Shown: positions 23,991 to 61,281 of the stretch, piece by piece
Layout: each line of letters begins with the position of its first letter
Position numbering within the stretch: the stretch's first letter is position 1
Assembly (NCBI RefSeq): GCF_963921235.1
Contig: NC_086111.1
Location: 29,636,001 to 29,700,000 of the forward strand
DNA length: 64,000 nucleotides
Source of the DNA: Mobula hypostoma
Lineage: Eukaryota
Direction of reading: 5' to 3'
Notes under the pieces: model-generated
The model's database searches: none
Told to the model about the DNA's origin: nothing
The model's input: only the letters and a program-made list of their open reading frames with translations
Made by a program: the position numbers and the translations under genes

Positions 23991-24699
23991 TATGCTGGGA
24001 AATTGGCTCACTGAACCTGTGCTAGATTAGGCATGGTGCCTTTGCTTTGGGTGTGTTTTAATGTATGGCTATCAGGAGCAGGACAAATAAAACTTCCTTT
24101 TCTGCCACATAAGAAACTACAGATGCTGGAATCTGGAAAATCAATCGATCTGCTGGAGGAACTCAGTGGATCGAGCAGCATCTGATGTGGTGGTCGGTAG
24201 GAGAAAGAATTGTCAATACTGAGAGCAGTCTTGCCGAGCATTGTCTGGGCGTCTGAAAACCTGCATTAGGACTGAGTGGAGAGGGGCGTGGTGAACCTGG
24301 GATGATTGGTAGGTTCAGGAGAGGTGAAGGAAATGGGTAGGTGGAGAATGGGTTGGGAAGTTAAGGGGTAGATTTGGGAGGTGGAAATAGGTGAATTATG
24401 GATGGCGGCAGAGGAGGAAAACAGCAGATGGAGTGAGGTGAGGGAAGAGGGTTTAATGTCCCCACTATCCAGGCCATGATCTCTGTTTTCTGCTACCACC
24501 AGGAAGGAGGTACAGGAGCCTTGGGTCCCATCCCACCAGGTTCGGGAATAGTTATTACCCTACAACCATCAGGCTCCTGAATCAGAATGGATAACTTCAT
24601 TCACCATAACACTAAACTGATTACTGAACACAAACTGTGAACACACTCTCAAGCATCCACAACTCATTCTCCATATTATTTATGTGTTATTATTTTTTT

Positions 24700-27572: not shown

Positions 27573-29200
27573 AGTTTTAAAGAATACATTTGCATTATAT
27601 TAATCCTGTGCTTGAAGTATTTTATATGTTTAACAGGTTAGGAAAAGCTATTGACAATAAGGCACTATCAGCAAGTAGTAAAACTTAGTAGACAAACAAC
27701 ATTAATACACCTGTGTACATTTCCTACAATTACAAATTTCACATTTATGTAAATACACTTCTACCATTCAAAAGTAAAATTTTACACTAATTTAGAAATC
27801 TTCCCAATCAGATTTGTGAAGAATAATTATGAAATGTGAAGAATAAAATGGTTACAACCTTTATAAAATATGTTAAAACAGAATTATGGTATGACTGAGT
27901 GATATGGAACCCGATTAAATGCTAGATCAAAGCTGCTCATTTGTATACAAAAAAAATCAAGTCTGTTGTGCAAAGCAAGTATAAAGAAGTGTGTGTTAGC
28001 ATTTTAACCTGAATTGAGCCCAAGTTACAAATTTATATAACTTAAGCACAATTACCTGAAATAACTTCAGAGTCAAAAGATGGAAATACAACTCACTTAT
28101 GCACTAACAGTTAAATGAGTAAAGTAATATTTCAATAATTTTACTTTAATGTCATATTGATGCTCAAGTTGGACTCGGCTAATGAATCACCCAGCAAAAC
28201 CTTAATGAACCATTCACTTTCTTCATGCCATACAATAATTTAGCTTGTTTGTGCAGTAGTACTAAATGCTAAATTAGACTACATTTATTCAGAATCCAGA
28301 ATAAAATCATGGAAAGTGGAAGACTATCTGGATGACAAACCAAGCATTCTCATGTGGTTTAAGATTTCATATCCAGCTAGGTGCGTATTGTTAATACAGA
28401 TACTCCTTCCAAAAGCCCCAGTCCTTAAGAAGTACAGCGGGGAAAAAAAATCTACTTTTCAGGCAACCCATTTTTTAATAATTAACGGCTTCTCAAAGAT
28501 CTTTCCTTAGTGGAGTATATCAGAATTTCAATAAATCTATTGATGACGATATTCATCAGATTAAATTTAAATACATGCACAACAAAACAGCTCTGCAGAC
28601 AATGAAATCATGAAAATGGCCACATGAACAAGGCATCAAAGGAATGGTGACACCCATAAATAATTTACAGGAATTCTGGTGTAAAAAAGATATGAAATGT
28701 ATGGTCAAGATGGGGCCAATGAATAATGCTTCAACAAGAGACATCTTCCAGATAGTCCACAAAACTGTTTCTTTCACTTCTTTTACATCTGTTTCTTTTA
28801 AATGTGGCTCTGGTATTGTTGAAGCCTGTGATCTACTGTTCAATGGTGTGTTTTCAGGCTGACTGAGCAATCCTGTGCTTTGCTGTCTCCGAGAAGGTTC
28901 CAGGAGGCAAGTGGCCTCAAGGCCAAGAAGCTTAGAGACAGGGCATGAGCAAGGGAAAGCGTGAGAGTGAAAGGTGGTGTATGTCATGCTTGCTGTGCCA
29001 TATAACCTACTGTATAATATACAACAACTTTATGTTGTACCAATACATTGTATTGAGCATGCATTATTAGGCGCGTATGGATCTGTATATATGCGTGTTC
29101 AGTTTGGTTTTAGTTAGGAAAGAACCCTGTTGATTTAGCTCCCATCTCCAGCATTTTATTTACAGCTTTGTTGTGTAAACTGGCCACATACACAACAAAT

Positions 29201-29211
29201 TGGCAACGAGG
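29201..29211 (+). promoter_or_regulatory. Primer-binding site, tRNA-Ser(GCU)-like
   Basis: TGGCAACGAGG 3 nt after the LTR; one mismatch to TGGCGACGAGG, the recalled complement of the tRNA-Ser(GCU) 3' end. Confidence 0.7.
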
Positions 29212-30762
29212 TTAATGAACCTACATCTTACCGGAACGCCGGGTTTTAGTTGATAACAGCACTCGGAGGACAAGCACAAGGTATGAGCCAGGGAAGCGGG
29301 AGACACAGTCGGAGCCGCAAATCATCCAGCCAAGACCACAGCCAGAGCTGACCCCAGGGGCTGAGGGTCTGCAGCCCCAGAAGGGAGGGAAAAAAAGGAG
29401 CGACACACACATCTAGCCAGAGTACGCTTGCAACGCTAGCAAAAAAAAGGTCATGCAAGTCAAAAAGAAAACAAGGGACCGGGGCTAAATTGACAAGGGA
29501 TCGGGGCTAAGTTCACATAACAAGGATAAATTAACATAACAAGGATGGCGTTAATTGGCACCATTACAGCATTTGATAGTGGCATTTAAGACTGGGCTTA
29601 TATTGAAAGAATAAAGTTATATTGTGATGCTAACGATGTTAACGATAACCAATTTCCCCTGGGATCAATAAAGTATGACTATGACTATAATGAAGAAAAC
29701 AAAGCCAGCGTCTTACTTAGTTTAATGGACGCGAAAACATACGGCCTGCTACGGAGCTATTTAACCCCTGAAAAGCCAGCTGACAAAACATTCAAGCAAA
29801 TAGTAGACACTCTACAACAGCATTTAAACTCCAAACCATTGGTCATTGCTGAAAGATTTAAATTCCATAAACGGAATCAGAACAAAAATGAAAGCATTTC
29901 TGAATATTGTGCTAAATAGCGCAAATTATCAGAATGTCGTCAATTTGGAGCTGATCTATCAGATGCATTGAGGGACAGGTTAGTGTGTGGCATGCACTGT
30001 GAAATCACACAGAAGAAGCTTCTGTGTGAAAGAGACTTTACATTAGAGAAAGCTCTAAACATCACTATATCAATGGAAACAGCGGCACCGGGTGCTTCCG
30101 AGATACAATAAAAATCTCTGTTATACGCCACAAATAAAACGTCACTGAACAGAAATAAAGGGAAGAAATGTTATGGGAAATGTTACCGTTGTGGGAACAG
30201 GTCACATGACCCTGATGATTGTTGGTTTAAAGATAAAGAATGCAGAAACTGTAGCAAACAGGGCCACATTGGCAGAGTATGCAAAGCTAGTAAACAGCAG
30301 AAAAAGGACAAAATACAGAGAAACAAGAAACCCCAGAAAGGAAAATACAACAATGTGCACAAAATGAAAGAAAACAATGCTGTCACTTAGACAAAAGTGA
30401 ATTGTCTTGTCTGCGACTTCACAGTGTGAAAGACACAGATGATCGAAGAGTAATATGGATCACTCCACAAGTGGCAGGCGTGAGACTGAAAATGGAGTTG
30501 GACACTGACTCAGCTTTAACAGTAACCTCTGTCCACAACTGCAACTGACTGTTTCCTCACTTACCTCTGAAACGAACTAAACTACTGCTAAAGACTTACA
30601 CAGGGCAGAAAGTGCGTCCCAAAGGTAAAATTAAAGTGACAGTGACCTACGGAGACAAAACACAGCAGCTGAACCTCTATGTACTGAAAAATGGAGGACC
30701 ACCGTTGCTGGGACATGAATGGCTCAGGAAAATTCAGTTGGATTGGCACACCATCAACATGC

Positions 30763-32080
30763 ATAAATATTGACTTCTCAAACTTCCGCCCCACCTCCCC
30801 GTCGTACCCCATCCGTTATTTATTTATATACACACATTTTTTTCTCTTTCTCCTTTTTCTCCCTCTGTCCCTCTCACTATACCCCTTGTTCATCCTCTGG
30901 GCTTCCCCCCTCCCCCTTTCTTTCTCCCTGTGCCTCCTGTCCCATGATCCTCTCATATCCCTTTTGCCAATCAACTGTCCAGCTCTTCGCTCCATCCCTC
31001 CCCCTCCTGTCTTCTCCTATCATTTCGGATCTCACCCTCCCTCTCCCACTTTCAAATCTCTTACTAGCTTTTCTTTCAGTTAGTCCTGACAAAGGGACTC
31101 GGCCCAAAACGTCGACTGTACCTCTTCCTACAGATGCTGCCTAGCCTGCTGTGTTCACCAGCAACTTTTATGTGTGTTGCTTATATTACATGCTCAAGGA
31201 GATCTGCTTTTTTGTGAGAAGGATATAATGGTCTTTTGGAGGTCACCTGATGTGATTTCCCCACCGATGTGAGGTCACGTGATGACATGTGCCCCGTGAC
31301 TATACAAGGGTCGACTCCGGTGACGCAGTAGGGTTTTTGAGTTTGTAGATTTCCAGGTAGAACATGTTGTTCCTCTGTTTCTGTTGCGTGTTTGTTTTTG
31401 TGACGCAGTTTTATTTTTAAAACGGAAGGTATTGTATTTGGACTGCGAATCTGTGGCTGGAAGTGCCAATTTACTCAATTCCGACCGTTTTGAAGGGAGA
31501 GTGAAGAATTCATCGAAGTGAAGGATCAAGAGAAGTCGGCATCGTTTGGCAGTTTAATAAAGGATCGACCTTATTGAGTCTTCGTTGGAGAGAACCTGCA
31601 TCTAGATAACTCTTGCAAAAGGGGAATGAGTTCATGCAAAAAGGTGCTCTCTCTAAAAGGAATTTAAGGTCAGTCAATTTAAACTGTTTATTTTCGACAT
31701 CGGGAATCCTGTGGACAGAACCAGCAGTAAAGGTGCGTCTGTGAAGAAATCCTTCTCCAGAGAAGTCTCTCCCAATTGAATGTGTAAAATTGTTGGACTT
31801 TCGAAGTTATCGCTTTAAGAACTATATCTGACTGTATCGCTTTAAGAACTGTTTTTGCATTTAACGCTTTAAGAACCAGAGCCGAGTGGAGTTGGTGAAC
31901 GGCTGCGTACCTGTTAACCTCCGGTTAAAGTTTTCCTTTGTTTTTTTTCCTTATCGTTTATACGTGTTTAATAAATGTTGGGTTGTTTTTATATAACCTG
32001 TCTCGATTAATATTCATTGTTGCTGGCTACGTAACACTTAAAATTCCAGCATCTGCAGATTTCCTCGTGTTTGCGTTTTT
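30763..32080 (+). mobile_element. Penelope 3' tail inserted in the Gypsy pol, itself split by a solo LTR
   Basis: NIDFSNFR end of the PLE ORF, CT-rich tail and degenerate hammerhead at 31082-31117; the tail resumes at 32037. Confidence 0.85.
31184..32036 (+). mobile_element. Solo LTR (853 bp)
   Basis: Termini TATTAC(=TGTTAC)...GTAACA; exact 4-bp TSD CTTA (31180-31183, 32037-32040); AATAAA near 31970. Confidence 0.8.
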
Positions 32081-34419
32081 AAAACAAGTGCTCGCCAGGT
32101 CATGAGAATATGGGCTCAGAGCTAATCGACAGAAATGTGAGTTTTTCAAAAAGGAAATTTCATACTGTGGACATGTGATCAACAAGGATGGGTTACCCAT
32201 GTCTCAAGCCAAGATAGAAGTGGTACTCAAGGCACCACCACCTGAAAATGTGAGAGCATATCTTGGTCTAGTGAACCACTACCACAAGTTCTTGCCTAAC
32301 CTATCCACAGTTTACACCCACTAAATGCATTATTGCAGACAGGGACACAATGGAAGTGGACTAAGAGCTGTGAGAAAGTGTTTCAAGAAACTATAAGTCT
32401 CATAACTTCAGACGGGGTGTTCACGCACTTTGACCCTCCTTACCTATCCAACTAGCTTGTAATGCCTCGCCCCATGGGATAGGAGCTGAGTTATCGCACA
32501 AGTTTCCAGATGGATCCAAAAGACCAATAGCCTTTGCCTCAAGAACGCTAACTTCAGCTGAACGTAACTACGCACAGATTGACAGAGAGGCCCTAAGCCT
32601 CATGTGGGGTCAAGAAATTCAGTCACTACCTGTATGGCCAAAAGTTTACTCTGTTGACGGACCATCAGCCTCTCGTGTCAATCTTCAACCCAAGGAAAGG
32701 CGTTCTAGTGGTGACAGCACAAAGGCTACAGCGATGGTTCCTTTTCTTAGGAGGTCACAGGTATGACATTGAACACAAAGGGACCAAGCAACACGGCAAA
32801 GCAGATGGTTTGTCACATTTACCACTGCCCACTTCCGAGGTAATGACGCAAATGGATTCAGCAGAGGTCTTTCCCACAACAATAGTTGAACAATTACCAG
32901 TAACAAACAGCCTCATTGAAAAGGAAACACACAATGACCCTATGCTGTCAAAAGTGTATGACATCACGGTAAAGGGATGGCCAGAGTGTGATAAAACACT
33001 GTTTCCAGCCTTCTCAGCGAGGAAGAAGCAGTTGTCAGTGTGTCGGGGAACACTAATGTGTGGCTCTCGAGTTGGGATTCCTCCCAAGCTACGCACCAGA
33101 GTGCTGGAGGAACTGCACGAGGGGCACCTGGGTACCGTGAAGATGAAAAGTCTTGCCTGTGGCTATGTGCGATGGCCAGGAATCGATAAACAGATCGAGG
33201 ACTTGACCAAGAACTGCTCTGGATGTCAAAAGATCCAGAACACATCAACACAAGCCCCCCTCCATCCATGGGAGTGGCCCTCATCACCATGGCAATGAGT
33301 GCACATCGACTTTGCTGGACCATTCATGGACTCTATTTTTTTTTAATTGCCGTCAATGCACATTCCAAATGGCCAGCGGTCATCAAAATGAAGTCAACCA
33401 CGTCAGAAAAGACCATTACAGTTCTGAGGACCATGTTCGCCAGGAATGGCATACCAGAACAAATCTGCACAGACAATGGACGACAATTTATCTTTGAAGA
33501 ATTCCAAAATTTTATGAAGAGCAATGGAATCAAGCACTTTACATCTGCCCCTTATCATTCATCCACAAATGGCTTGGCAGAAAGTTTTGTACAGGCATTC
33601 AAGAAAGCCATCAAGGCAATGGACAGCAAAAATCGACCACTGCAACACAAGACAGACAACTTCCTCCTTGCCTATCGTAACGCAGTACATGTCACCACTA
33701 ATCAGACTCCAGAGATGGTGTTTCTGAACAGGAACCCGAGGTCCCACATGGATCTTCTCAAACCAGATGTACGGCGTGATGTGGAGAACGGACAGTTCAA
33801 ACACTTGAATGCTAAGTCAACACGGAGCTTCAGTGTGGGATAGTCAGTTCTTGCATGTGATTACCGGACTGAAAAGTGGCAGCCAGGTACAATTTCCGCC
33901 CTAGATGGACCACTGATGTATAGAGTACAGGTGGGAGAGAACATATGGAGATGTCATGTGGACTAAATCCCGGATGCTCAGGTGAAAAACTCAACAACAC
34001 CTTGCCTGGACTCCCATGACATGGAAGCACGTCATGTGGATCAAATCTCGAATGCTCAGGTGAAAAACACAACAACATCTTGTCCTGACTCCCTGGACAT
34101 AGAAACAAATGCTCCTGATGTGACCACATCAGCCTCATCCACAGATAAGCCTATTATCAGTTCTGAGGACCCACCTGATATACCTTTGGAGGCTGTTTCC
34201 CCAAAGCAAACGTTTCAGGACAGACATTACCCGGACAGGTAGAGAAGACCCCCCCCCCAAGACTTGATAATAACATTATAATAATTTTTATTATGTTACC
34301 TTATTATAATTTGATATTATTAAGTTACTAAGAAAATAATTGGTAAATGTTTGTATGTTAAGGGTATACATATTGTTTAGCATAATGCCCCCAGTAAAAA
34401 AAAAGTTGATACACTATTA

Positions 34420-34548
34420 NNNNNNNNNNNNNNNNNNNNNNNNNNNNNNNNNNNNNNNNNNNNNNNNNNNNNNNNNNNNNNNNNNNNNNNNNNNNNNNNN
34501 NNNNNNNNNNNNNNNNNNNNNNNNNNNNNNNNNNNNNNNNNNNNNNNN
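34420..34548. other. Assembly gap (129 N)
   Basis: Run of N covering the PPT and the start of the Gypsy 3' LTR. Confidence 1.
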
Positions 34549-34732
34549 CTACTGTATAGGACTACTTTATGTTGTACTAATACATCGTCTTGTGCAAGCG
34601 CTATTAGGCGCGTATGGATCTGTACACATGTGTTCATTTTGGTTTTAGTTAGTAAAGAACCCTGCTGATTTAGCTCCTGTCTCCAGCATTTTACTTACAG
34701 CTTTTTTGTGTAAACCGGCCACATACAAAACA

Positions 34733-35615: not shown

Positions 35616-38556
35616 CTGTTGAGACATGACTTAAGTGACTCTGCTACTTGTTGAAATTAAGATCCAGTGAAGAACAATAAGGAGTGATCAGTGATACAAA
35701 TACTTATTTAAAACCATAATCTGTTGACGTTACTTGTAAGAACAATTGCAGGAAGTCACTCTTTCATATTATGCAATGAACTAACTCAACTCTCACAAGT
35801 CAAACTAGAAAATAGAAAGCCACTTGTTTGCTGGTGTTGTCCCTCTCCATCTTGCATGTGTTCAGATCAAAACCAGCTTTGTGTAAATTTGTTAACCTAG
35901 ATTACAAACAGTCATTGTGCATACTGTACATAAACTGATGAAAAAGTATTGCATCAGGATTTGGCAATTGGACTGCAGAATTGCTTTTATATCTAGAATC
36001 CTGGACATGCACAGTTATTCTGAATAAAGGAAATGTCAGAAGGATAAAATGTCAGAAAAGCAACTGCAATTCAATACCAGTAAATGTACATTTTGGTTAA
36101 TTTAAAGGTAGCAAACAATAATGAGAAACAGTGATGGATTAAGAACAAGAGGAATAACCTTGAGACAATATACAACTCATGTCCAAGTAATAAAAAAAAT
36201 GTCCACATCTCAATTTTGTTCTCAAGTCACAAAATACACACAAAAAAATCACTCATTATGGTAAACATATACCTGCACTATTTTCTTATTATAACTTGAA
36301 CTAACTTTTTTATACTGCTGCCACAAAACAAATTTCATGACACGTGTCAGTGATAATAAAACAAATTCAAAGCCAAAAGCTTTCAAAAGGCATCATGCAT
36401 CTACCAGTGAAATGCAAACACAACTTTATGACTGGGTTGAGAGATAAAATTTCTTGTGTTGGATCTATTATGCATTGTGCCAGCAGTAATGGATCATTTG
36501 AAGAAAACAGAAAAGGCACAAGATACTAAGATCAATTCTCCAAAACATTAAAACACTCAACAGGAAAAATAGCATGCACAAGTTGGTGAACTATAAGAAT
36601 ACCATTCAGGTTCAATCCAAGTACACCAAAGATGCAATTTGGAAATTGGTATTTGGTATAAATTTTGTGAAGAGTCAAACTTATGAGACGCTGGAGGAAA
36701 TTTTAATTGTCCATTATGTTCAAGAGCAAGTTACAGATGAAGAGCTTGAAAATTTAAAAAGTAAAATCCAATTAGTGAAACCTTGTATGTCCTCAAGAAA
36801 TCCCATATACACTCAAGAATGGGTGAACATAGATGGCAAGGTTAACTTTGCAAATCATTCAAAATATCATTAATCCTGAACATGTCACTATCAGATAAAT
36901 ATCCTCAGGAAGACAATAAGCTGTCTGATCAGACAAAGATATCCAGGGCAGATGGAATGACAGCAAAACTTCAATAATCAAGCATCCTCAGGGCTTTGAT
37001 AATCTCTACCAGCAAATTTTCCAGACCATTAAATGTTACTTCTATTAATACCCAAACACACAGATTTCACTGCAAAAAAAAACCAAACTGCAGATGCTTG
37101 AATGGGAAGAAGCCGAGTTCTGCCTACAGTCTCTTGTATGTACACTTGGGACTTTTTAAAACACACCTCTGGATAGTATAATAAATGTTTCTATAGACCC
37201 CACAACTTTCAAGGGAGCAGGAAGTGCGCTTCCGATTCATATCTAGGAACAAACATCCCATGTTCCTGACCCTCTGCGTCCAAAACAGGCACTTGACCTG
37301 CAATGCAGACTCCCAGCTCTGGCTACACTATTTACATTCTGGACCCTCTCCACACATTCCAGACTAATAAGTGAGCCAGATGCCAGATCATTTGGAGGTC
37401 TGTACAATCAGATGCCAGATTATCAGACTTTTAACTCCCGTCATCAAGTTGTGTGAGATAATCTCTGGTTATTCTGCTCAGGATGTAATGCAACTGTGTC
37501 ATCCACAAAAACAATTTGAAGAAAAGGCAACTTAGTAATATATTCAAGATTTACAACAAAATACTTTCACAGCATGAGTAAAATCTGCAGGCTCTGTATT
37601 TTCACTGTCTTGCAGATTCATCACCTGAAGCAGATGAGGGATCAAACATTAAATTATCATGTAAAATACTGTAGTGATAAGTGAAAATGAAAGTGTATCA
37701 CTGAAAGACAAATTATTGTCTATAGTGTTTATTTTGTGTCTAGAATTACAGTTCGATGTTACACTACAATAAATGGATTTCACCTCAGCAATAACACAAC
37801 ACTATATTTCATTTCCCTTATCCCGTAACCTTTTAACGCTCTTGACTAACAGGTACCCGCCATTCCCCATGCAAATGCTTACTGTATACAGTGACATCTG
37901 CTGGAAATGGGAATATGCAGACAGAATATAATCCCATTGTTTTTGTAAAATAATACATTATTCAAAATTTTGGCCATCTGAAATACTGGCACATGGATAC
38001 TTTACATGCAACCTACTAATACTGATTAATTTTAGCAACAGCTGCCTATTAAATTCAACCATATTTCTATTGTATTGATCAATCAGAAGCTAATTTCACT
38101 TTTATTTTATAGCTATTTACCAATTATGAGGTTTATGATACTACAGTCTTTTATAAAATGCAGTGTTAAGACCAAAACAAAGTTGTCCTCTTAAAAATTT
38201 ATCTGCAAGAAGATAGGTTTTAAAAGTGATTGCATTCACATCTAATTGGTAATATTGAGTACATTTTGGAGACCGTAAAGGTTTGAATAATTATTGACTG
38301 TCCTGTGGGGGTGTGCCTAATTTCAATTGTTGAAAGTTGCTTCCACTGTGATTGGTTAGTTTAGAAACTGCAGCTGCCTTTCCCATTGGATATGATTGGT
38401 AAGGTATACTCTGTGCACACTTTTAACTAAGCATGTTTGTTGATCAGCTTTCTAGTGTCTAACCTGGGGAACATGAATGTTTGGTCAAATTTTTACTGTT
38501 GGTGAATAAATGATTAACATACCCATTTGAAGTCAGTGCACTACCTGTCTCACTTG

Positions 38557-38946
38557 CATGTGCGAGCAAGGAGGCCTACAAACCTGACTCAGTTACACCA
38601 GTTCTGTCTGAAGGAATGGAACAAAATTAGAGCAACTTACTGTGAGAAGCTTGTGGAAGGCTATCCAAAACATTTGACCCAAGTTAAGCAATTTAAAGGC
38701 AATGCTACCAAATACTAACGAAGTGTAGGTAAACTTCTGACCCACTGGGAAAGTGATGAAAGAAATAAAAGCTGAAATAAATCGTTCTCTCTACTACTAT
38801 TCTGACATTTCACATTCTTAAAATAAAGTAGTGACCCTAACTGACCTAAGACAGGGAATGTTTTCTAGGATTAAATGTCAGGAAATGTGAAAAACTGAAT
38901 TTAAACTTATTTGGCTAAGGTGTATGTAAACTTCTGACTTCAACTG
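38557..38946 (+). mobile_element. Sleeping Beauty-family Tc1 transposon, 3' fragment with complete right IR/DR
   Basis: VRARRPTNLTQLHQFCLKEWNKIRATYCEKLVEGYPKHLTQVKQFKGNATKY*; inner DR GTAAACTTCTGACCCACTG; outer end GCTAAGGTGTATGTAAACTTCTGACTTCAACTG followed by TA. Confidence 0.93.
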
Positions 38947-38949
38947 TAT

Positions 38950-39555
38950 AAAGGCAGCAAGACAGCAACTATATTAGGAGCTTGAAGAGCTTTGGCATGT
39001 CAACAAATACACTCAAAACCTTCTATAGATGTACCGTGTCGAGCATTCTGACAGGCTGCATCGCTGTCCGTTATTGGGGGGGGGGGTGCTACTACATAGA
39101 ACGAAAAGAAGCTACAGAGGGTTGTAAATCTAGTCAGCTCCATCTTGGGTACTAGCCTAAAAAGTACACAGGACATCTTCAGGGAGCGGTGTCTGAGAAA
39201 GGCAGCGTCCATTATTAAGGACCTCCAGCACCCAGGGCATGTCCTTTTCTCACTGTTACCATCAGGTAGGAGGTACAGAAGCCTGAAGGCACACACTCAG
39301 CGATTCAGGGACAGTTTCTTCCCTTCTGCCATCCGATTCCCAAATGGACACGAGTGAACCCTTGGACACTAATGCACTTTTTTTAAATATACAGTATTTG
39401 CTTTTTGCACATTTTAAAATCTATTCAACATACATATACTGTAATTACTTATTTATTATCTTTTTTTCCTTTGCTATATTATGTATTACATTGAACCGCT
39501 GCTAAGTTAATAAATTTCACATCACATGGCGGTGATAATAAACCTGATTCTGATT
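38950..39555 (+). mobile_element. Rex1/Babar-type LINE 3' fragment inside the ERV
   Basis: RCLRKAASIIKDLQHPGHVLFSLLPSGRRYRSLKAHTQRFRDSFFPSAIR; AATAAACCTGATTCTGATT tail. Confidence 0.85.
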
Positions 39556-40026
39556 ACTGATGGGCTATGGAATGCCAGTAGATTGGCCAGGCCGGTTGGA
39601 TTTTGCCAGGATTGAAATAGGACATCACTTTGTTTCCATACTTAAATCATCGTGTTTTCCCAGCAGGAAATGCTTTCTGGCTGTTTGCAGTGTTTGTAAG
39701 ATATCCATGTAAAATTAAAGTGAGTCTTAAGAATGAATTGGAGGACTTCAGTCAGAGCTGTATTGTTCTGAGCAAATCACTCTTGATGGCTCAGAGTAGG
39801 ACTACAAGGTTAGGAGATAGGAATATACAGATAGCTTGTCAGCTGATGAATATACAGCGCTTAGGGGCCACACGCCGAGCTAATTAGCAATCAGATCCCG
39901 TTAAGGTTCAAGCCATAATGGGGTGGGGCAATGATCCTACTGTGGGGCTGGGAGATGGGAACGTCTGGCTGGATAATGAAAACAAGGGAGAGAGGGTAAT
40001 GAGGACCTCAGAGTTTAAACCTTGAG

Positions 40027-41041
40027 ATGATCGCCCTCTCCCTTGTGTCCAAAACCGTAGGAGCTGGGCCAGTGATCATTCATTCCCACACCTACCGTGG
40101 GGGCATCGATCTGCAGCTTCTTCCTCTCAGGACAGGGAGGGGGAGAAGGCTCAGGAATGTGTGCGGGATGGTGAAATGGACACCTTCGAGACAGATCAGA
40201 GAATTCTCCACTAAGGAATTAGTGACTTTATGGGATAGGTACTGACAAATGTCTGGGGAGTCTTTGGCTACCTGGTTACTGAGGATATAGGATGAGGGGG
40301 GCACCAAAGTGATCCTGTCTAAAAAGAGATGGGTGCTTGGGTGCTGTATCATCACAACACATAATCAATAATGCCCAGAGAACAACTCTTGCTTCCCCTG
40401 AGCATAATGCATCACTATGAAAATGAGTGGTGGCAGCAGTCAGGGTCAGATACTCTTCCCTCCTTGAACTGGATTTAAAATCCCAAGCAGAATGGAGCAA
40501 AGTAGAAGGGGGCACTAAAGTTCTATGCCAGTGGGCTCTTATCACAAAATTATACCACAATAGTGGTAGCCCACCAGACAATAGGACACTTGGTTACGGC
40601 TATGGTTTGCTCAGTAAAAGTGGTAGTGCTGTCTTTAATACCACCAACTGTTGATCTTCTTATAGCTACAGTGATTCAGTTATTACAAGGTTTCGAGTAT
40701 GTAGAAGAGGGTGTGCGTAGCCAGGTACAGAAGTTGGATAACCAGATGGGGAGTGAGGGATCCTGCGTATTCGTAAAGAAATGTTTTTAGTGTTGCTTAA
40801 AGCTGAGGTTCTGGAGGAGCAGCTAAATGGGGATCCCATCCCTACCCTCTCTGCAATGTGGAGGGAGTTCAGTATGGGGAAGCAAGATAGGGAGGTTGCT
40901 GAGGGAGAAGGGTCATTCTTCAAGTCCCCTGCAGATAAGGTTTCCTTCTATCCTCTGCCAGATTCCTTGCATTCCATCCAGGGTTTCCTGCAAAGGATAT
41001 TAGCAAACGCTTACCAGCAGTGGAAATCAGGGGTTGGTTAG
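40027..41041 (+). pseudogene. ERV-L/Fv1-like gag remnant
   Basis: Read through stops and frameshifts: REFSTKELVTLWDRY*QMSGESLATWLLRI*DEGGTKVIL ... SL*K*VVAAVRVRY...WSKVEGGTKVL ... RKEMFLVLLKAEVLEEQLNGDPIPTLSAMW. Collinear with recalled HERV-L gag blocks (KELLEFSNLYKQKSGEQAWEWILRVWDNGG; WFNVEEGIQRL; RVELWHWL...IDRKPT). Confidence 0.78.
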
Positions 41042-42049
41042 TGCCTCATCATTGTAGGGAGAGAGCAAATCAACTTGCAGCCCTCTTCCTGTAAATAGAG
41101 GTTGAACAATTTGCATGTGGAAATTGTGAGGTGTGCCCACATACGTCTGTAGGTGAGAGGCGGAGTGGCGGGATTTGACCTTTAAGAGACCGTAAATCTG
41201 TTCAGTTCACCCAGTTGCTTTCTCTTTCTCAGTGGTTTTCTGACAAGTGCTGTTTTTCTGTGAGAAATTAACTACCTGTTTTAAGTTTTTGTAGTTCCAC
41301 ACAAAGGTTTAAAGAAGAGGAGTGTAGCCTGGACTTTGGGCTTTGAGTTTTGTGTTTAATGTGTTACTTTGTTTCTTGCATTTGTTTAGTGACTTTGTTT
41401 CTCAGTTTTTAAAATCTGTTATGTGTTTATTGTGTCTGAATCTGTTACTTTGTTCCTAGTTTCCCCATGTAACTGGTTTTAGAGATGACCCATTTCATAC
41501 TGGCCATATGAAATAAAAGTTGAAATTTGGTAGAAATTTGGGCAACCTTATTCTGGATATGAGATGCCCACATTTCAGAGGGAATTGACCATTTGGGGAG
41601 CAATTCTAGCAGTTTTGTTGTTTTTGTGTTTTCTGAATACCCAGTGACTAATAAGGAGCAAGTGCATTTGTAACTTCCTGTATTACAGAATGGCAAAGTG
41701 GTAAATGCTGACTTGTGGTGGGTGATCTTCTGATACATTTCTGGGGATGGTGTTTGAATTTCCACACCGGAGCAATTGGTCTGATGGCTGAGTTTCTATG
41801 AGTATTATATAATACTTCTTATTATATCACAGAAGGGATGCCACTGATATTGATTGATCCCTTTGACGATAAAGAACGCTTGTTCGGGGAAATTATCTGG
41901 CTTGTCGGGTTTTGGCATTCTATTTTGGGGGGAGCAGAGAGAGTAGTCTATTCCAGCCTATCTTGACCCAGAGTATGGTAACAGCTTTAAGGGACGTGAG
42001 TCTTAATAGCCTTGGTAGAGTAAGTGTTTTAAGGGCTGGTATTTCCCAA

Positions 42050-42720
42050 TGTACCTTTATATAATTGGAATGTCCTGACTCTTACAGTGATTTCTTATTG
42101 ACAGAGTGTTAGTATAGCTGGTATGCTGAGTACAGGTGCAAGATGGATGGCAAGTGTGAGCAGAAACTGTATCCTGGGATGGCCATGTCTGTACCAAATG
42201 GTGTTGTGAATCTGGGCACTTGCTGGATGTGAATGGCACTTTCTGAATATGCAGTTCCTAGCCCAATCCGTGGCTCCCACAGGGCAGTGTGGTTGATGTG
42301 TGGTCCTGAATATATGCCAGCCCGGTGACCTGGATGAACACCTAGCCCATGTTTGTTGATAAGAGGGCTATTACAAAGGAAGGATGTTTCGAATGAAAGC
42401 CTTTCTCAGCACAGCGTGGCCAAACACTACTGGGAACTGCTTTCGAAGACCTGAGTTTACCTGCTCACAAAAGGAAGATGGCACATGTACTGTTATTGGT
42501 CAAAAATGCTGCACCTACACAACTGACAGGCAAGGTAATATCACTCACCTGCTTGATCATATCTCAGAGTCAGTGTATAAAATTAAGTGGGGGACCAGAT
42601 CATTGGCTATTCACTCCAGGATGGTGCACAGGGAGGCTGGCAGACTACTGCAGTATATGGGGAGATGACTATTGGGTTTACAGTACTGGGTATTTTACTT
42701 CAGTGTCTCAAGTGTAACTT
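42050..42720 (+). pseudogene. Retroviral env remnant (gamma-type TM)
   Basis: WLMCG SU-like motif; YLLTK remnant of the immunosuppressive domain; CTVIGQKCC (CX6CC) at 42486-42512 followed by TY..D..GNIT; Trp-rich HWLFTPGW; hydrophobic MTIGFTVLGILLQCLKC. Confidence 0.75.
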
Positions 42721-43316
42721 AGTTGGGTGTTCGTGAGAATCATACTAGTCCGAGGGTTGGATCATCACATTCACAACTTGAGCGCTGGAGTGTACTCTGG
42801 GGCATGCCTTATTCTGATTATCAAAAGTTGCTTCCATTGTAATTGGTTAATTTAGAAACTGCAGCTGTTTTTGCCATTGGATAGCTGCCTGGTTCCAGTT
42901 TCAAATACCTTAGGTAAATAAAATAGCACGTGGAAGGGGCTTGCTCTCCCTTCCATTGTTTGAGGCAAGGATGCACATGACAATTGGGAAGGTATGCTCT
43001 GCACACACTTTTAACCATTTATGTTTGTTCAATGTACATATCTTTGTTGAATATTCAGCTTTGTAGTGTCTTTAACTTTGGGAGCAAATGTTTGGTTGAA
43101 TGTTTACTATTTGTAAATAAATGATTAATATACCTATTTGAAGTCAGTGCATTTCTTGTCTCACTTGTTGGACCCACAAACCTGATTCAACATTAACTTA
43201 CCACATATTAGCTTTGTGATATTGTTTATTTAAGAAACTTCAAACTTTACAATTATGCCTACACTTATGCCAACCCTAACATGAGAAGTCCAATCCACTG
43301 GACATCGATAATGATA

Positions 43317-45787
43317 GTGAACGGAGCAGGCCAGGCAGCATCTCTAGGAAGAGGTACAGTCGACATTTCGGGCCGAGACCCTTCATCAGGACTAACTGAA
43401 AGAACAGCTAGTAAGAGATTTTAAAGTGGGAGGGGGAGGGGGAGATCCAAAATGATAGGAGAAGACAGGAGGGGGAGGGATGGAGCCAAGGGCTGGACAG
43501 TTGATTGGCAAAAGGGATATGAGAGGATCATGGGACAGGAGGCCCAGGGAGAAAGACAAGGGGGAGGGCGGGAAAGCCCAGAGGATGGGCAAGGGGTATA
43601 GTGAGAGGGACAGAGGGAGAAAAAGGAGAGAGGGAAAAAGAATGTGTGTATATAAATAAATAACAGATGGAGTATGAGGGGGAGGTGGGGCATTAACGGA
43701 AGTTAGAAAAGTTAATGTTCATGGCATCATGCTGGAGGCTACTCAGACGGAATAAAGAGTGTCGTTCCTCCAACCTGAGTGTGGCTTCATCTTTACAGTA
43801 GAGGAGGCCGTGGATGGACATATCAGAATGGGAATGGGACGTGGAATTAAAATGTGTGGCCATTGGGAGTTCCTGCTTTCTCTGGTGGACAGAGCATAGG
43901 AGTTTAGCAAAACAATCTCCCAGTCTGCGTCGGGTCTCGCCAATGTATAAAAGGTCACATCGGGAGCACCGGACGCAGTACATCACCCCAGCCGACTCAC
44001 AGGTGAAGTGTTGCCTCACCTGGAAGGACCGTCTGGGGCCCTGAACGGTGGTAAGGGAGGAAGTGTAAGGGCATGTGTAGCATTTGTTCCACTTACAAGG
44101 CTAAGTGCCAGGAGGGAGATCAGTGGGGAGGGACGGGGGGGGGGAAACGAATGGATAAGGGAGTCGTGTAGGGAGCGATCCCTGCAGAAAGCGGGGGGGG
44201 GAGGGAAAGATGTGCTGTGGGTGGGATCCCGTTGTAGGTGGCGGAAGTTACGGAGAATTATATGTTGGACCCGGCGGCTGGTGGGGTGGTAGGTGAGGAC
44301 AAGGGGAACCCTATTCCTAGTGGGGTGGCGGGAGGATGGAGTGAGAGCAGATGTGTGTGAAATGGGGGAGATGTGTTTGAGAGCAGAGTTGATGGCAGAG
44401 GAAGAGAAGCCCCTTTCTTTAAAAAAGGAGGACATTGCCCTCGTCCTGGAATGAAAAGCCTCATCCTGAGAGCAGATGCAGTGGAGACAGAGGAATTGTG
44501 AGAAGGGGATGGAATTTTTACAAGAGACAGGGTGAGAAGAGGAATAGTCCAGATAGCTGTGAGAGTCAGTAGGCTTATAGTAGACATCAGTAGATAAGCT
44601 GTCTCCAGAGATAGAGACAGAAAGATCTAGAAAGGGGAGGGAGGTATCGGAAATGGACCAGGTAAACTTGAGGGCAGGGTGAAAGTTGGAAGCAAAGTTA
44701 ATGAAGTCAATGAGCTCAGCATGCGTGCAGGAAGCAGCGCCAATGCAGTTGTCGATGTAGCGAAGGAAAAGTGGGGGACAGATGCCAGAATAGGTTTGGA
44801 ACATAAATTGTTTCACAAAGCCAACAAAAAGGCAGGCATAGCTAGGACCCATACAGGTGCCCATAGCTACACCTTTAGTTTGGAGGAAGTGGGCGGAGCC
44901 AAAGGAGAAATTATTAAGAGTAAGGACTAATTCCGCTAGACGGAGCAGAGTGGTGGTAGAGGGGAACTAATTAGGTCTGGAATCCAAAAAGAAGTGGACA
45001 GCTTTGAGACCTTCCTGATGGGGGATGGAAGTATATAGGGACTGGACATCCATGGTGAAAATAAAGCGGTGGGGGCCAGGGAACTTAAAATCATCGAAAA
45101 ATTTCAGAGTGTGAGAAGTGTCATGAACATAGGTAGGAAGGGATTGAACAAGGGGGGATAAAACCGTGTCCACCAGAGGAAGCAGGATCTCCCAGTGGCC
45201 ACACATTTTAATTCCACGTCCCACTGCCATTCTGATTATGTCTATCCACGGCCTCCTCTACTGTAAAGATGAAGCCACACTCAGGTTGGAGGAACAACAC
45301 CTTATATTCCATCTGGGTAGTCTCCAACCTGTTGGCATGAATATTGACTTCTCAAACTTCCGCTAATGCCCCACCTCCCCCTTGTACCCCATCTGTTATT
45401 TATTTATATACACACATTCTTTCTTTCTCTCTCCTTTTTCTCCCTCTGTCCCTCTCACTATACCCCTTGCCCATCCTCTTGGCTTTCCCCTCCCTCCCCC
45501 TTTTCTTTCTCCCTAGGCCTCCTGTCCCATGATCCTATCATACCCCTTTTGCCAATCAACTGTCCAGCTCTTGGCTCCATCCCTCCCCCTCCTGTCTTCT
45601 CCTATCATTTCAGATCTCCCCCTCCCCCTTTCAAATCTCTTACTAGCTCTTCTTTCAGTTAGTCCTGACGAAGCCCAAAACGTCAACTGTACCTCTTCCT
45701 AGAGATGCTGCCTGGCCTGCTACGTTCACCAGCAACTTTTATGTGTGTTGCTTGAAATTCCAGTATCTGCAGATTTCCTCGTGTTTG
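43317..45787 (-). mobile_element. Penelope-like element: minus-strand RT + GIY-YIG with an inverted plus-strand 3' copy
   Basis: RT motifs FTMDVQSLYTSIP, MGTCMGPSYA, FLRYIDN, LPFLD; GIY-YIG VMYCVRCSRCDLLYIGET; 45166-45728 is the inverted copy of about 43317-43895; exact 14-bp TSD CATCGATAATGATA (43303-43316, 45788-45801). Confidence 0.94.
43358..43393 (-). ncRNA. Minimal hammerhead ribozyme motif (PLE type), sense to the BSN pre-mRNA
   Basis: AGTC-CTGATGA-AGGGTCTCGGCCC-GAAA-TGTC-GACT; intact core, stem I AGTC/GACT, stem III palindrome altered (ACGT to ATGT). Confidence 0.65.
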
Positions 45788-46046
45788 CATCGATAATGAT
45801 ACATTATTTTCTCAACCATGAATTTGATGCCACCAAACAATTGAAACTCATCCTTTCATCAACTTGTGTACCTAAAAAAGTAAATTTCAGTGCCAAACAG
45901 ATTTTATCTGGCACTAATTCTACCGATTCTTCTGGAATCTAAATGAACATTTGGAAATAAACAGTAACAACTGTCTCAGGAGTAATAAGAGATTCTAATA
46001 ACGAAGCAATGAATGAGTGCTTCACTCTATTTACCACTGTAAATGT

Positions 46047-46350
46047 TGGCGCGTAGCCAAGTGGTTAAGGCATCAGTCTAGTGATCTGAAGGTCGCTAGT
46101 TCGAGCCCCAGCTGAGGCAGTATGTTGCGTTCTTGAGCAAGGCACTTAACCACACATTGCTCTGCGACGACATCAGTGCCAAGCTGTATTGGCCCTAGTA
46201 CCGTTCCCTTGGACAATATTGGTGGCGTAGAGAGGGAAGACTTGCAGCCTGGGCAACTGCTGGTCTTCGATACAACCTTGCCCAGGCTTGCGCCCTGGAA
46301 ACCTTCCAAGGCGCAAATCCATGGTCTCATGAGACTAACGGATGCCTATA
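46047..46350 (+). mobile_element. tRNA-derived CORE-like SINE
   Basis: A-box TAGCCAAGTGG, B-box GTTCGAGCCC, CORE-like TTGAGCAAGGCACTTAACC; flanking TAAATG direct repeats. Confidence 0.8.
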
Positions 46351-53400: not shown

Positions 53401-54153
53401 TCAAACTCAAGCTTCTGAAAATATCTGAACTTTTAATGCATTCCAACACAGTAAACTGAGTGGCAAGATAAATAAAAGACACTTGGATTTTCTTTTAGCT
53501 TATACTCCAGGGATTTAGCCAGTGATATTTTGCATGATAACACTATCAACCATGATAAATTACTAAAGGAATAGTGTCCCTCCCCCCTGCCCTCCCCCCC
53601 CCCACACACAGTTTAAACTGGACATGTCTTTAGGATGTTGATCTGTTCACTACCCTTTCATATTCCAAGTACATTTTAATTACTCTTGAAGAGATCATTT
53701 CTTTTCAATTCGAAAATGATTAGCTGCTAAAATAGGTTAAGTCCTTAGCCAGCGGCACAATCATATTACATTTATAAACATTGAGATTCACAGATTTATA
53801 TCTTTATTTACCGTACACCCAAATTCATTTTCTGAATTGTCAAATATGCATAAAGTTCAAATGTTGTTTATTTTTATCAGTCCCAGTTCTCTAAATTTTC
53901 CTTTTGATATTTAATCTTTCCAGATAAAGAATACAAGATTTTTGAAGTCACTTGTACTGACTCTATAGCTTGAATATTGAAAGGGTCATGAAAGCAGATT
54001 CAATAGTTATTTCAAGGGAGAATTGAGATGAATTGAAACCTCTGTCACAAGCAAACAAAACTACAAAAAAATTCACATGAACCCAATCTGAACTACAAGA
54101 TCAAAGTTGCTGGTGAACACAGCAGGCCAGGCAGCATCTCTAGGAAGAGGTAC

Positions 54154-54189
54154 AGTCGACATTTCAGGCCGAGACCCTTCGTCAGGACT
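54154..54189 (-). ncRNA. Minimal hammerhead ribozyme motif
   Basis: AGTC-CTGACGA-AGGGTCTCGGCCT-GAAA-TGTC-GACT. Confidence 0.62.
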
Positions 54190-54236
54190 AACTGAAGGAA
54201 GAGTTAGTAAGCCTCTTACCAACTCTTCTTTCAGTT

Positions 54237-54272
54237 AGTCCTGACGAAGGGTCTCGGTCTGAAACGTCGACT
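54237..54272 (+). ncRNA. Minimal hammerhead ribozyme motif
   Basis: AGTC-CTGACGA-AGGGTCTCGGTCT-GAAA-CGTC-GACT; intact core, GUC cleavage triplet, ACGT palindrome. Confidence 0.72.
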
Positions 54273-54619
54273 GTACCTCTTCCTAGAGATGCTGCCTGGC
54301 CTGCTGCGTTCACCAGCAACTTTGATGTGTGTTGCTTGAATTTCCAGCATCTGCAGAATTCCTGTTGTCTGAACTACAAGAGACCATTTCTTTATCCAGA
54401 TAAATGACAGAAAATACAAAATATAAAGGAAGGGAAAGTAACCCATCAGTTCCACGCTTCGACATATTACATGCTATTGGAATGAACTTCAATCTTTAAT
54501 TGAGAAAGCTGATCTCAGTTGATGAGGTGGAAACCAAAATCAATTAAAGTAACTAAGAGTAAAATTTTAAAACATGCAGAACTTCCACTGAAATGTGGTC
54601 TACGTCCCTGCCTCTGGAT

Positions 54620-55940: not shown

Positions 55941-57011
55941 ATAATTTCACATAAGGAGCAGAAAGACTATTTAGGCCATTGAGCCTGCTCTACCATTCGT
56001 GGTCTATGACTTAACATAACACACTCTCCTCTAATTGATAACCCTTAATGATTTTCAATTCGCAATTTAAAATTAAAACTGCTTCAAAAAGTTCTGAACT
56101 TCCCATGAAGGGTGTTTTGTAAATTCATACCTGAAGTGGCTACTCCCAAATTTCCCAGAGGAAATAGTTTCTATCTTCCTTATTTCCCTTAATATATTCA
56201 AAAAGCCTTGGCCAAATTCATGAATTGGAAGTCTCATTTTGGTAATTACCTTTACCAACTTTTAGAAAGTCACAGCAAGAACATGTCTGCAACCAACGAT
56301 GGGCTTGATTTACATTGTAAAAAGCTGCCCCAAGCACATCGGAACACACTGCTTTTTCTAACATGTGGTAGTATATTTATAATTAAGTATTTTAAAAAAT
56401 CAACAAGTTTATTTAGCTTTTGTTACATCTCATCTAATTTCAGCATTTACGCAATTCAACACTCTACTGGAGCTATGAGGACTTTGGTATAACTCCCACA
56501 GAAGTCTCAACTCCTCTTAGCATTTGCTAATCACACCCTCAAGCCCCTGCTGTCTTCTTACTTTGGATACATCATGTCTCTTTACTGAATTGATTACATC
56601 CTTAATCACCAAGGCAACACCTCCCACATGTTCTCAATTTCCTTGCTAAATCCTTAACATCCGAGCTACAAATGGAACCAGTTTTCTGCAGTTCACTGCA
56701 CCTGTTAACCAACTTCTATTTCAAACATTGAAAAAGTTCATTTTAAACATTGTTACATTCTCTGTCTGTTAGGCAAAGCAGTCTAAATAGCTATAATTGA
56801 TCACAGAATATTGATTTTCATGTGATGATTGTTTGGAAGAAATTCTGGGTAGAACTTATGTTCTCTAATTCCATTACTATTTGAGTGAAGGTTTAAGACA
56901 AATGAGATTTAAATAATCAATTTCATAACTACATCTAGTAATCAATATTAAATAAGAATGCTTAAAGTGATTCTTATACAAATTAAAATAGTTCAAAGTA
57001 TTAAAACTCAC

Positions 57012-57402
57012 CTCTGTAATGTCAGGATTCGGGTTAAATCCACACTGTTTGCATACTACTGATCGACACTGAGTACAAGTATTGAAGTTTGGCTGATTTG
57101 GAGAAGAGTTCAGCTCTGTAGTTGCACATACTGGACACAGAGTACTGCTAGGCAGTGGAGCTATCTGTGGTACTGAATAAGGGGAGGTTGGAGCACTTCC
57201 TCTATCTGGGGATGCAGAATGGGATCTTTCTGTTCTTTTCATATTTGGGTCAACCTGAAGAGTCCTTATCTGTTCTTGTTGTAGTAGAGATTGTGTAGAA
57301 AGACCTTGATTTTGCATTCTTCGAGCACTTTCATTGTTGGGAATACTCTGCTGGAGGGTTTCAATTTTCCCATCAAGCTGACCAAGCTGACGTGGTCTTG
57401 CA
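57012..57402 (-). CDS. BSN: Bassoon presynaptic cytomatrix protein, coding exon (equivalent to mammalian exon 2); N-terminal half of zinc finger 1
   Basis: Translation ...RTLQVD...[67 protein letters not shown] closely matches recalled Bassoon ([29 protein letters not shown]). Acceptor TTTTATAG|T at 57402, donor GAG|GTGAG at 57012; 391 nt, ends in phase 0. Confidence 0.93.
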
Positions 57403-58109
57403 CTATAAAAAATGTAAGTCAAGTTTCAATCCAGTTATCATAATTGGTGAAGCCATAAGCAATTCAACAATAAAAAAAAATCTCCAACTTTGAGTGCCTG
57501 CCACCAGTGCCGGTATGCAGGTACAGCACAGATAATACCTGAAAACTGATTCAATGTATTTACGCCAATTGATCCAATTTTACTGCCTGCTTTGTGGTGG
57601 TTCATTTGAACTGAATAAAAATATCAACCTTAACTACTGATACTTCAGAGTCAAAAATAATTCAAGATCAAAAGTAAATTGATTACCTAGATGTTTTACA
57701 AACACTTGCATTATTGTGATATTGGCCTGGATATGCAGTTGTAATAGGACAGGTTAGTCATCACCATAAAGAAACTTTGTATGTAAAATAAGATGTGCAG
57801 TTAAATGGAAAAATTATGACAGTTATTAATAGAATTTTTTGCTTCTACGCAGAAAGTAGTATTGTATCTTTCTGCAGTATAATTTTCAGAAATCAATTTT
57901 CTGACAAAAAATTCAGAAAGTTACAAATTAATCTTAAAAATTATAAATACTTTCTAAATGGCACACTAAACCTTAAAAACCATTTAGCAACTCCTTTAAC
58001 TCTAAAAAAGTCAATTCACACCAATTCCAAAATATAAATTAAAATAATTTGGATTTTGCATTCAACTGGGTATTTATATCAATTTTTCCCATTTTGCACA
58101 CTAAAATGT

Positions 58110-59394: not shown

Positions 59395-60735
59395 TCTTTG
59401 ACTGCTCTGCTACAGTCAGAGGTTTCCACCTGCTTCAAAAGGGCAACAATCATACCAGTGCCCAAAAGAGCAGGGTGAACAGCCTCAATGAGTATCACAG
59501 AGTGGCATTCACATCTGCTGAGAGGTTGGTCAGTGCTAGAATCAACTCCTGCCCAAGCAAGGATCTGCATCTGCTGCAATTTGCCCGTCACCACAATAGG
59601 TCTACAGTGGATGCAATCTCACTGGCTCTCCTCTCAGCCTTGGATTACTTGGACAATAGCAATACATATGCAAGGTTGTTGTTCATTGACTACAACTCAG
59701 CGATCAACACAATAATATCCTCAGTTCAAATCAACAAGCCCCAACCTGAGCCTCAGTATCTTTCTCTGCAACTTGATCTTTGACTTCCTCACCAGGAGAC
59801 CACAGTTTGTGCAGATTGGAACCAACATCTCCTCGCTGACAATCAACAATGTCGCACCTCAAGGATGCATGCTTAGCCCACTGCTCTACACCCATGATTG
59901 TGTAGCTAGGCACAGCTCAAATTCCATCTATAAATTTGCGAATGATATAACTATTGCTGGCAGAATTTCAGATGGGGATGAGGAGTACAGGAGTGAGATA
60001 AATCAGCTAGTTGCAACAGCCTTGCATTCAACGTCAGCAAGACCAAGTAACTGAAGTAGACTTCAAGAAGGAGAAGTTGAGAGAACACACACCAGTCCTC
60101 ATCGAGGAATCAGAAGTGGAAAGGGTGAGCAGTTTCAATTTCCTGGGTGTCAACATCTTTGAGGATCTATCCTGGGCCCAACATATTGATGGAATTATAA
60201 AAAAGGCATGATAGCGGCAGTACATCATTAGCAGTTTGAGGAGAATTGGTATGTCACCAAAGACACTCACAAATTTCTACAGTTGTACCTCGGAGAGAAC
60301 TCTAACTAGTTCCATCACCATCTAATATAGAGGGGTCACTGAACAAGATTGGGAAAAGCTGCATAAAATTGTAAACTATGCCAGCTCCATCATGAGCACT
60401 AGCATCCCATGCATCCAGGGGACCTTCCAAAGGCTGTGCCTCCTAAAGGCTATCCATCATTAAGGACCCCCAACACGCAGGACATTTCTTCTTCTCATTG
60501 CTACCATCAAGGAGGTACAGGAGCCTGAAGACACACACCCAACTTTTCAGAAACAGCTTTTTCCTGTCTGCCATCAGATTTCTGAATGGACAATGAACCC
60601 ATGAAATATCTTTTGCCTCATTTCCTCTCTTTTTGCACTAGTTAATTTTCTTTTTATATTCTTGTTATAATTCATAGATTTCATTGCTATGTATTGCTGC
60701 TGCAAAACAAATTTCATGACAGATGCCAGTGATAT
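59395..60735 (+). mobile_element. Rex1/Babar-type LINE, RT to 3' end, decayed
   Basis: NRSTVDAI, YARLLFIDYNSA, APQGCMLSPLLY, KFAND. Confidence 0.85.
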
Positions 60736-61281
60736 TAAACCCCATTCTGAATTTTGCTCTTTCATTTACATTTATGTTATTAATGCTTTAAAAGACCTGG
60801 AAGACCTTGACATTGATTGCACAAGTACTTGGCAGCTGTAGTCCAAGAGAATAATATCTATTTTCTTACACAGGAAAACCCAATGGTGTAAAAATAAGAC
60901 TCACATACACACATTTCTGTGTAGAACTCTGCATGTCATCAATCTGATTGTTTTCCTGAGCTACAGCTTAACCAGATCTCTACAATGATGTCTATTTTCT
61001 CATGGAATTGGTATGGTCTTTCATTGATTCTATTATGGTTATTATTCTACTGTGGATTTATTGAGTATGCATGCAATAAAATGAATCTCAGGGTTATACA
61101 TAGCGACATATGTACTTTGATAATAAATTCACTTTCAACTTTGAAATGTACTGAATTGCATTCTTATATCAGAATCTGATCATTCTATTTTGTTTTTAAT
61201 ACTGTTGTAAATAACTGCATCACAAAAGCACAACCACGTCTGCATTTCCAAACAGATTTCAAACAAGGATAATGCTCTTAC

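Follow-up and report, generated by a model that had tools for sequence, protein, structure and literature searches.

A pol-less class III provirus with a gamma-type env in the genome of the ray Mobula hypostoma

An endogenous retrovirus (ERV) that has kept gag and env without pol raises the question of when its pol was lost, and of how such a genome could have been copied. Within a 64-kb window of the Mobula hypostoma genome (assembly GCF_963921235.1, contig NC_086111.1, positions 29,636,001 to 29,700,000 of the forward strand; coordinates below count from the first base of this window), the element at 38299-43192 on the plus strand is a dead, pol-less class III provirus with a gamma-type env. 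We consider it probable, at roughly 0.6, that this class III (XtERV-S/ERV-S-like) provirus lost its pro-pol region before integration, and that Pol was supplied by a helper.

Anatomy of the provirus

The provirus is made up of the following parts:
38294-38298, left copy of the target site, TTGAC
38299-38556, plus strand, 5' long terminal repeat (LTR), starting with TGT, its 3' end gone, without about 97 nt and 23 nt that are present in the 3' LTR
39569-41041, plus strand, decayed class III gag, with stops and frameshifts throughout and about 35 N-terminal codons missing
41042-41563, plus strand, T-rich spacer of 522 nt where pro-pol is expected, without pol homology
41564-42790, plus strand, decayed gamma-type env with a shortened transmembrane (TM) ectodomain
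41564-41644, plus strand, signal-peptide-like stretch of env, judged by eye
42486-42512, plus strand, CX6CC motif of env
about 42665-42712, plus strand, membrane-spanning stretch of env, judged by eye
42780-42790, plus strand, stretch like a polypurine tract
42791-43192, plus strand, 3' LTR of 402 nt, TGT...ACA, with AATAAA at 43116
43193-43197, right copy of the target site, TTAAC

A preliminary description of this locus had proposed two homologous LTRs and a 5-bp near-duplication of the target site, and both are borne out. The LTRs are identical at 214 of 255 aligned bases (blastn E 1e-29), with 28 transitions and 13 transversions giving a Kimura two-parameter (K2P) distance of 0.185; both start with TGT, and AATAAA stands at matching places (38505 in the 5' LTR). 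The two target-site copies agree at 4 of 5 positions, for which the chance at a fixed register is about 0.019. The proposed polypurine tract fits by its position directly before the 3' LTR and is weak in composition, with 8 of 11 purines. TGT...ACA ends and 5-bp target-site duplications are described as class III ERV features in PMC8278194, and the same combination, read here from the ends of the element, shows a true class III integration. The age of the provirus is only loosely bounded, because two rates quoted in PMC4422223 turn the LTR distance into anything from 42 to 420 million years. Within the window, blastn finds neither a third LTR copy nor a second copy of the internal region. The longest stop-free stretches of the element reach about 116 codons, CpG stands at about a quarter of the expected level, and there are no N gaps inside it (the sole gap of the window is at 34420-34548).

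Class III gag, gamma-type env and their stingray relatives

The window gag aligns with P0005, a 1520-residue model from the stingray Hemitrygon akajei that has the order Gag-protease-reverse transcriptase-RNase H-integrase (Gag-PR-RT-RH-IN), is open throughout and belongs to a cluster with 13 members. Four collinear blocks (P0005 residues 38-547, sum E 1.7e-20) cover nearly the whole P0005 gag, in agreement with the collinear gag blocks reported earlier. Profiles built for the N-terminus, capsid and C-terminus give scores of 62.9, 23.5, 19.4 and 14.3 bits, each reached by none of 100 shuffles. An exhaustive phmmer search with the window gag through 1.84 billion representatives yields two matches, the sole viral one being P0001 (E 7e-12), an H. 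akajei model that joins a gag piece to RT (predicted stingray gag-pol proteins P0005 and P0001, XP_072911374.1). The other match, P0002, a repetitive protein of bacterial type, was dismissed as chance. A word-indexed protein search with a window gag block gave no match among 107 candidates. Pfam gave no match below E 0.1 for the six full frames or for the gag blocks, and ten pieces of the window yielded no family of gag, pol or env type that was credible; the assignment of gag is therefore founded on its stingray homologues.

Which class of gag is this? The pattern QX3EX4-phi-X2R, which marks the major homology region (MHR), occurs once in the three plus frames, at 40246-40284. Over 20 residues, compared by hand with Fig. 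S6 of PMC8278194, it shows 12 identities with a bullfrog ERV, 10 with both HERV-L and HERV-S, 8 with both MuERV-L and XtERV-S, and 4 with PERV-C. A CCHC zinc knuckle is found neither in the plus frames of the window nor in intact P0005. By these signatures the gag is class III, but ERV-L is not singled out within that class because the MHR fits several class III rows. A link to Fv1 is weak but consistent, in that the Fv1-associated Pfam family DUF5535 matches P0005 residues 439-499 (E 0.004, below its cut-off), which correspond to 40772-40885 of the window. Features from the ESM Atlas, all below 0.9 and taken as leads only, include foamy Gag (0.89) and the Friend virus susceptibility 1 cluster (DUF5535; 0.84).

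The stingray proteins also inform on the pol that such a gag travels with. P0005 was found with the RT of P0001 as query among long proteins (47 matches among 3369 candidates); a word-indexed search with the gag region of P0001 recovered itself alone among 2342 candidates. The capsid region of P0005 matches bird ERV gags with E down to 1e-13, and its gag has a single match in the PDB, a designed coiled coil at E 0.61. YIDD is present in both models, and the P0005 integrase has the motifs HX4HX28CX2C and DX57DX35E; for ERV-L and XtERV-S, DX58DX35E is given in PMC8278194. Among the 42 of 49 fetched proteins that match the pattern of this RT motif, only the two ray proteins read AAPPLAAAVPD, and by eye in Fig. 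S1 of PMC8278194 the same string is identical in XtERV-S, 10/11 in a bullfrog ERV and 7/11 in MuERV-L and a chimpanzee ERV-S. In an RT tree of 15 rows chosen from the 49, which include no named ERV-L, ERV-S or SnRV sequence, P0001 and P0005 form a pair (94/92) that joins turtle and caecilian elements (95/95), and the bird elements stand apart. The caecilian element carries a dUTPase after the integrase; P0005 has no dUTPase match, but its model stops soon after the IN core. Both stingray models carry PR-RT-RH-IN, unlike the window copy, and they represent sister families rather than the same family, because their gag blocks are only 21-40% identical to those of the window. As an observation on the stingrays themselves, the open frame of P0005 and its 13 cluster members, which are known as a count only, suggest a young multi-copy XtERV-S-like family in these animals.

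For env, the CX6CC motif and TM claimed earlier are upheld. With breaks read as X, the TM query matches 43 PDB sequences with E no higher than 1; viral GP2 and syncytin-1 account for 39 of them, and the best E is 7e-4. Pfam gives no match on TM. Only about 39 codons separate a furin-like site from CX6CC, compared to 88 in XtERV-S, so the window TM is shortened. In the decayed surface subunit (SU) there is no convincing intact CXXC near the N-terminus. By eye against Fig. S7 of PMC8278194, the element thus joins a class III gag to a gamma-type TM with an immunosuppressive domain region, CX6CC and membrane anchor.

This combination has precedents: XtERV-S is described as carrying a gamma-type env next to a class III gag-pol (PMC8278194), and the same is noted for ERV-S (PMC10536682). 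As depicted in PMC8278194, XtERV-S and related frog ERVs share with the window a class III gag that has an MHR but lacks CCHC, a gamma-type TM with CX6CC, a 5-bp duplication and TGT...ACA ends, and XtERV-S shares with the stingray relatives YIDD, AAPPLAAAVPD and, with P0005, HX4HX28CX2C. Unlike the window copy, XtERV-S is described there as intact and autonomous, with pro-pol in frame after gag and a dUTPase, whereas the window copy has no pol, no detectable SU CXXC and no primer site. HERV-S/ERV-S likewise associates a class III gag (MHR 10/20 by hand count) with a gamma-type env; it has pol, and the ray RT motif is nearer to XtERV-S than to ERV-S. MuERV-L, HERV-L and Fv1 share the class III MHR (8 and 10 of 20 for the two viruses), the 5-bp duplication and the weak DUF5535 match in P0005, but ERV-L has no env and a pol with dUTPase, where the window copy has env and no pol. 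Judged on these features, the nearest described virus is the frog XtERV-S and not the env-less ERV-L, and the window element is not a member of ERV-L. The earlier label "ERV-L/Fv1-type" for gag is therefore correct as far as class III goes, given the MHR pattern and the weak DUF5535 match in the stingray homologue; below that level it does not fit, with an RT signature in the ray relatives like that of XtERV-S and not MuERV-L, and an env in the ERV-S/XtERV-S state.

The missing pol and the timing of its loss

The gap between gag and env, put at about 1 kb in the preliminary description, is shorter: 522 nt separate the gag end at 41041 from the env signal peptide at 41564. P0005 has at least 2916 nt of pro-pol, so the loss amounts to at least 2.4 kb. 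The claim that pol is absent stands. Six pol profiles run over six frames give no signal of protease, RT, RNase H, integrase or dUTPase, with all scores within those of shuffles, and frameshift-aware alignments to pol also stay within shuffle range. The gag alignment runs to P0005 residue 547, which is where the P0005 protease starts, and the score anchored on the 45-60 protease positions after the gag end was reached by 297 of 300 and 255 of 300 shuffles. How sensitive are these searches? When natural pieces of 30 residues were taken from a held-out relative, they rose above the null maximum in 8 of 9 cases for PR, 17 of 17 for RT and 16 of 17 for the IN core, and decay has left two window capsid blocks with 87-89% of the score of an intact relative. 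Two candidates were tried and rejected: 41020-41150, by eye like a protease start or an integrase C-terminus, failed the tests for both, and a dUTPase/IN score on the minus strand, reached by 4 of 100 shuffles, lies on the wrong strand.

Regarding the timing of the loss, the splicing and the helper, we infer the following course. Pro-pol would have been lost before integration, leaving an RNA of the form LTR-gag-spacer-env-LTR. The full transcript would serve for Gag, and a spliced one, using an acceptor in the spacer, for Env; in the spacer the sole acceptor-like polypyrimidine-AG site is at 41218-41232. The Pol of a related complete virus could then have reverse-transcribed and integrated the pol-less genome by trans-complementation. 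Once the provirus was in place, the region near its 5' end would have received a LINE and a Sleeping Beauty-type transposon; a later deletion would have cost it the end of the LTR, the primer site and the start of gag, and both genes would have been broken by point decay. Loss before integration is favoured because the end of gag, the start of env and the acceptor-like site are all spared: a loss of at least 2.4 kb has both its ends in narrow zones and touches neither gene. The 5-bp duplication with TGT...ACA ends and the existence of pol-bearing relatives in a stingray also speak for this course.

Several points weigh against this scenario. Of the three capsid controls, one fell short of significance (24 of 300 shuffles reached its score), protease pieces of 20 residues were detected in only 6 of 10 cases, and pol beyond the IN core was tested with bird and caecilian C-termini only; the spacer could thus be a decayed 3' end of pol, because no ray reference extends past the integrase core. 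A search for an autonomous partner with RT had been proposed, and it did recover pol-bearing stingray relatives, but on their divergence P0005 and P0001 are too distant to be the helper. The locus is also prone to deletion, as seen in the loss from the 5' LTR end to the gag start, the 97- and 23-nt LTR indels and the shortened TM. Deletion of pol at this locus after insertion stays a strong rival, since the locus has demonstrably lost other pieces, and at least one large post-insertion deletion here cuts a later-inserted transposon; the insertion is old by its K2P distance, and internally deleted copies are common in XtERV-S, with 19 described in PMC8278194. We nevertheless think it unlikely that pol went this way: no protease remnant lies behind the intact gag end, a random deletion would more often leave pieces of pol or cut into gag or env, and part of the spacer is 39-53% T, unlike the flanking gag. 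The deleted XtERV-S copies that PMC8278194 describes retain mainly the leader and the 5' end of gag, not gag and env.

A mosaic of two neighbouring or recombined proviruses, one giving the 5' LTR and gag and the other env and the 3' LTR, or a collapse in the assembly, might account for the high LTR divergence (16%) with large indels and for the mismatch in the target site. We regard this as very improbable, because one mismatch is expected at such divergence and a 4/5 match is seldom met by chance, the element is free of N gaps, and gene order and strand are those of a single provirus. Retention of gag or env for a host function, as in Fv1, Fv4 or the syncytins, is close to refuted: both gag and env have been co-opted in other cases (PMC8278194), but here both genes carry stops and frameshifts, no stop-free stretch much exceeds 116 codons, neither the gag start nor the primer site is present, and CpG is depleted.

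Even if loss of pol before integration is accepted, it may have been a one-off event. A more ambitious reading, which we hold to be doubtful, is that rays harbour an amplified class III family of LTR-gag-env-LTR form without pol, resembling MaLR but keeping env, and taking its Pol from an XtERV-S-like helper. Equally tentative is the extension of this reading in which a spliced gamma-type env perhaps lends Env back to the helper, giving a two-part retrovirus invisible to RT-based screens. That the pol-less layout was amplified as a family in any form, with a single copy in hand, we would place from unlikely to somewhat short of an even chance. Comparable arrangements exist. Mammalian MaLR elements lack pol and env, are mobilised in trans and have amplified as a family, and the class II EAV-HP elements of chicken lack pol and are likewise mobilised in trans and amplified as a family. 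Athila has, like the window copy, the form LTR-gag-env-LTR with pol missing, and is mobilised in trans; it differs in being a plant Ty3/gypsy element with gag and env under purifying selection and with family-level amplification shown, according to PMC2410132. In cattle, trans-complemented defective ERVs are reported to dominate (PMC10924933), and LTR-gag-env-LTR is named as an ordinary type of incomplete provirus in PMC1976444. Our literature search, partial in coverage, turned up no report of a class III family without pol in rays.

Published work largely anticipates the suggestion that this locus carries the lineage far back among jawed vertebrates: in six chondrichthyan genomes, clade III RT loci already form the majority (2843 vs. 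2018; PMC11089739), and the clade Huo, with class III included, is described as infecting all major vertebrate lineages (PMC6001957). ERV lineages of the elephant shark are given as SnRV- and epsilon-like (PMC4422223, PMC4977317), and a preprint (bioRxiv 10.1101/2021.11.23.469661) reports ERVs with gamma-type env in six cartilaginous fish and terms their class III pol SnRV-related; its supplements may list ray elements of a similar kind. What the window adds is one decayed locus, which points to uncharacterised stingray gag-pol families near the frog XtERV-S and bears on a class III gag-pol with gamma-type env as the ancestral state behind the env-less ERV-L, the source of Fv1. If the amplified-family reading were true, an XtERV-S/ERV-S-like branch, and not only SnRV-like class III, would be placed in cartilaginous fish, and vertebrates would have an env-bearing equivalent of MaLR and Athila, one that surveys based on pol overlook. 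A division of labour between ERVs at the level of single genes would then become testable from genome data.

Secondary insertions and genomic setting

Two later insertions occupy the region between the 5' LTR and gag:
38557-38948, plus strand, right-hand half of a Tc1 transposon of the Sleeping Beauty type, with the transposase tail as far as 38718 followed by the terminal repeat and TA
38949-39560, plus strand, 3' piece of a long interspersed nuclear element (LINE) with a short repeat tail and related copies in the window

Homology of the 5' LTR to the 3' LTR ends at about 38556, and viral sequence restarts at about 39569, equivalent to residue 38 of the P0005 gag. Absent from this copy are the end of the 5' LTR, the primer binding site (in ERV-L proper, a leucine tRNA site), the leader and about 35 N-terminal gag codons. 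The transposase tail matches 5cr4 at E 2e-24 and, by hand count, 43 of 53 residues are identical to SB100X; the end of the terminal repeat is presumed from reading the sequence. A Pfam match to Gag_p30 (E 0.009) on this piece is spurious given the transposase match. The LINE piece has no significant Pfam match and presumably belongs with Rex1/Babar, which it resembles; its relatives in the window are at 24462-24587, 60467-60592, 36327-36368 and 60706-60747. Because transposase coding sequence at 38575-38591 resembles the true LTR end at 43173-43189 (15/17 nt), the 5' LTR falsely looks complete. This resemblance lies 18 nt from the deletion junction and reflects either chance or a homology-guided deletion. 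The simplest history would be a LINE insertion into the start of gag, then the transposon, and finally a single deletion in which the LTR end was lost together with the primer site, the leader, the start of gag and the transposon's left half. The survey PMC9777934 records Sleeping Beauty and similar elements in no chondrichthyan, and their presence in a ray host may reflect an unreported horizontal transfer.

Exons encoding zf-piccolo lie on the minus strand at 17828-18754 (E 4e-25) and 56880-57425 (E 5e-17). On these domain matches, the window is within a piccolo/bassoon gene, with the provirus intronic and antisense. Upstream of the provirus is a Gypsy-type LTR retrotransposon at about 29040-34732, with LTRs of about 160 nt and RT-RNase H-integrase at 32058-33840, which contains a nested repeat (30839-31217) and the only N gap of the window. 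A LINE ORF2 at 11124-14003, plus strand, survives as four long open pieces (331, 203, 201 and 202 codons) with RVT_1 and zf-RVT matches and is relatively young. Directly after the 3' LTR, at about 43300-45790, stands a multi-copy repeat with further copies at 7073-7219, 30839-31217 and 54108-54372, which looks Penelope-like. Finally, a weak tRNA-like Rfam match outside the provirus (46052-46114, 30.8 bits) is probably the head of a short interspersed nuclear element (SINE).

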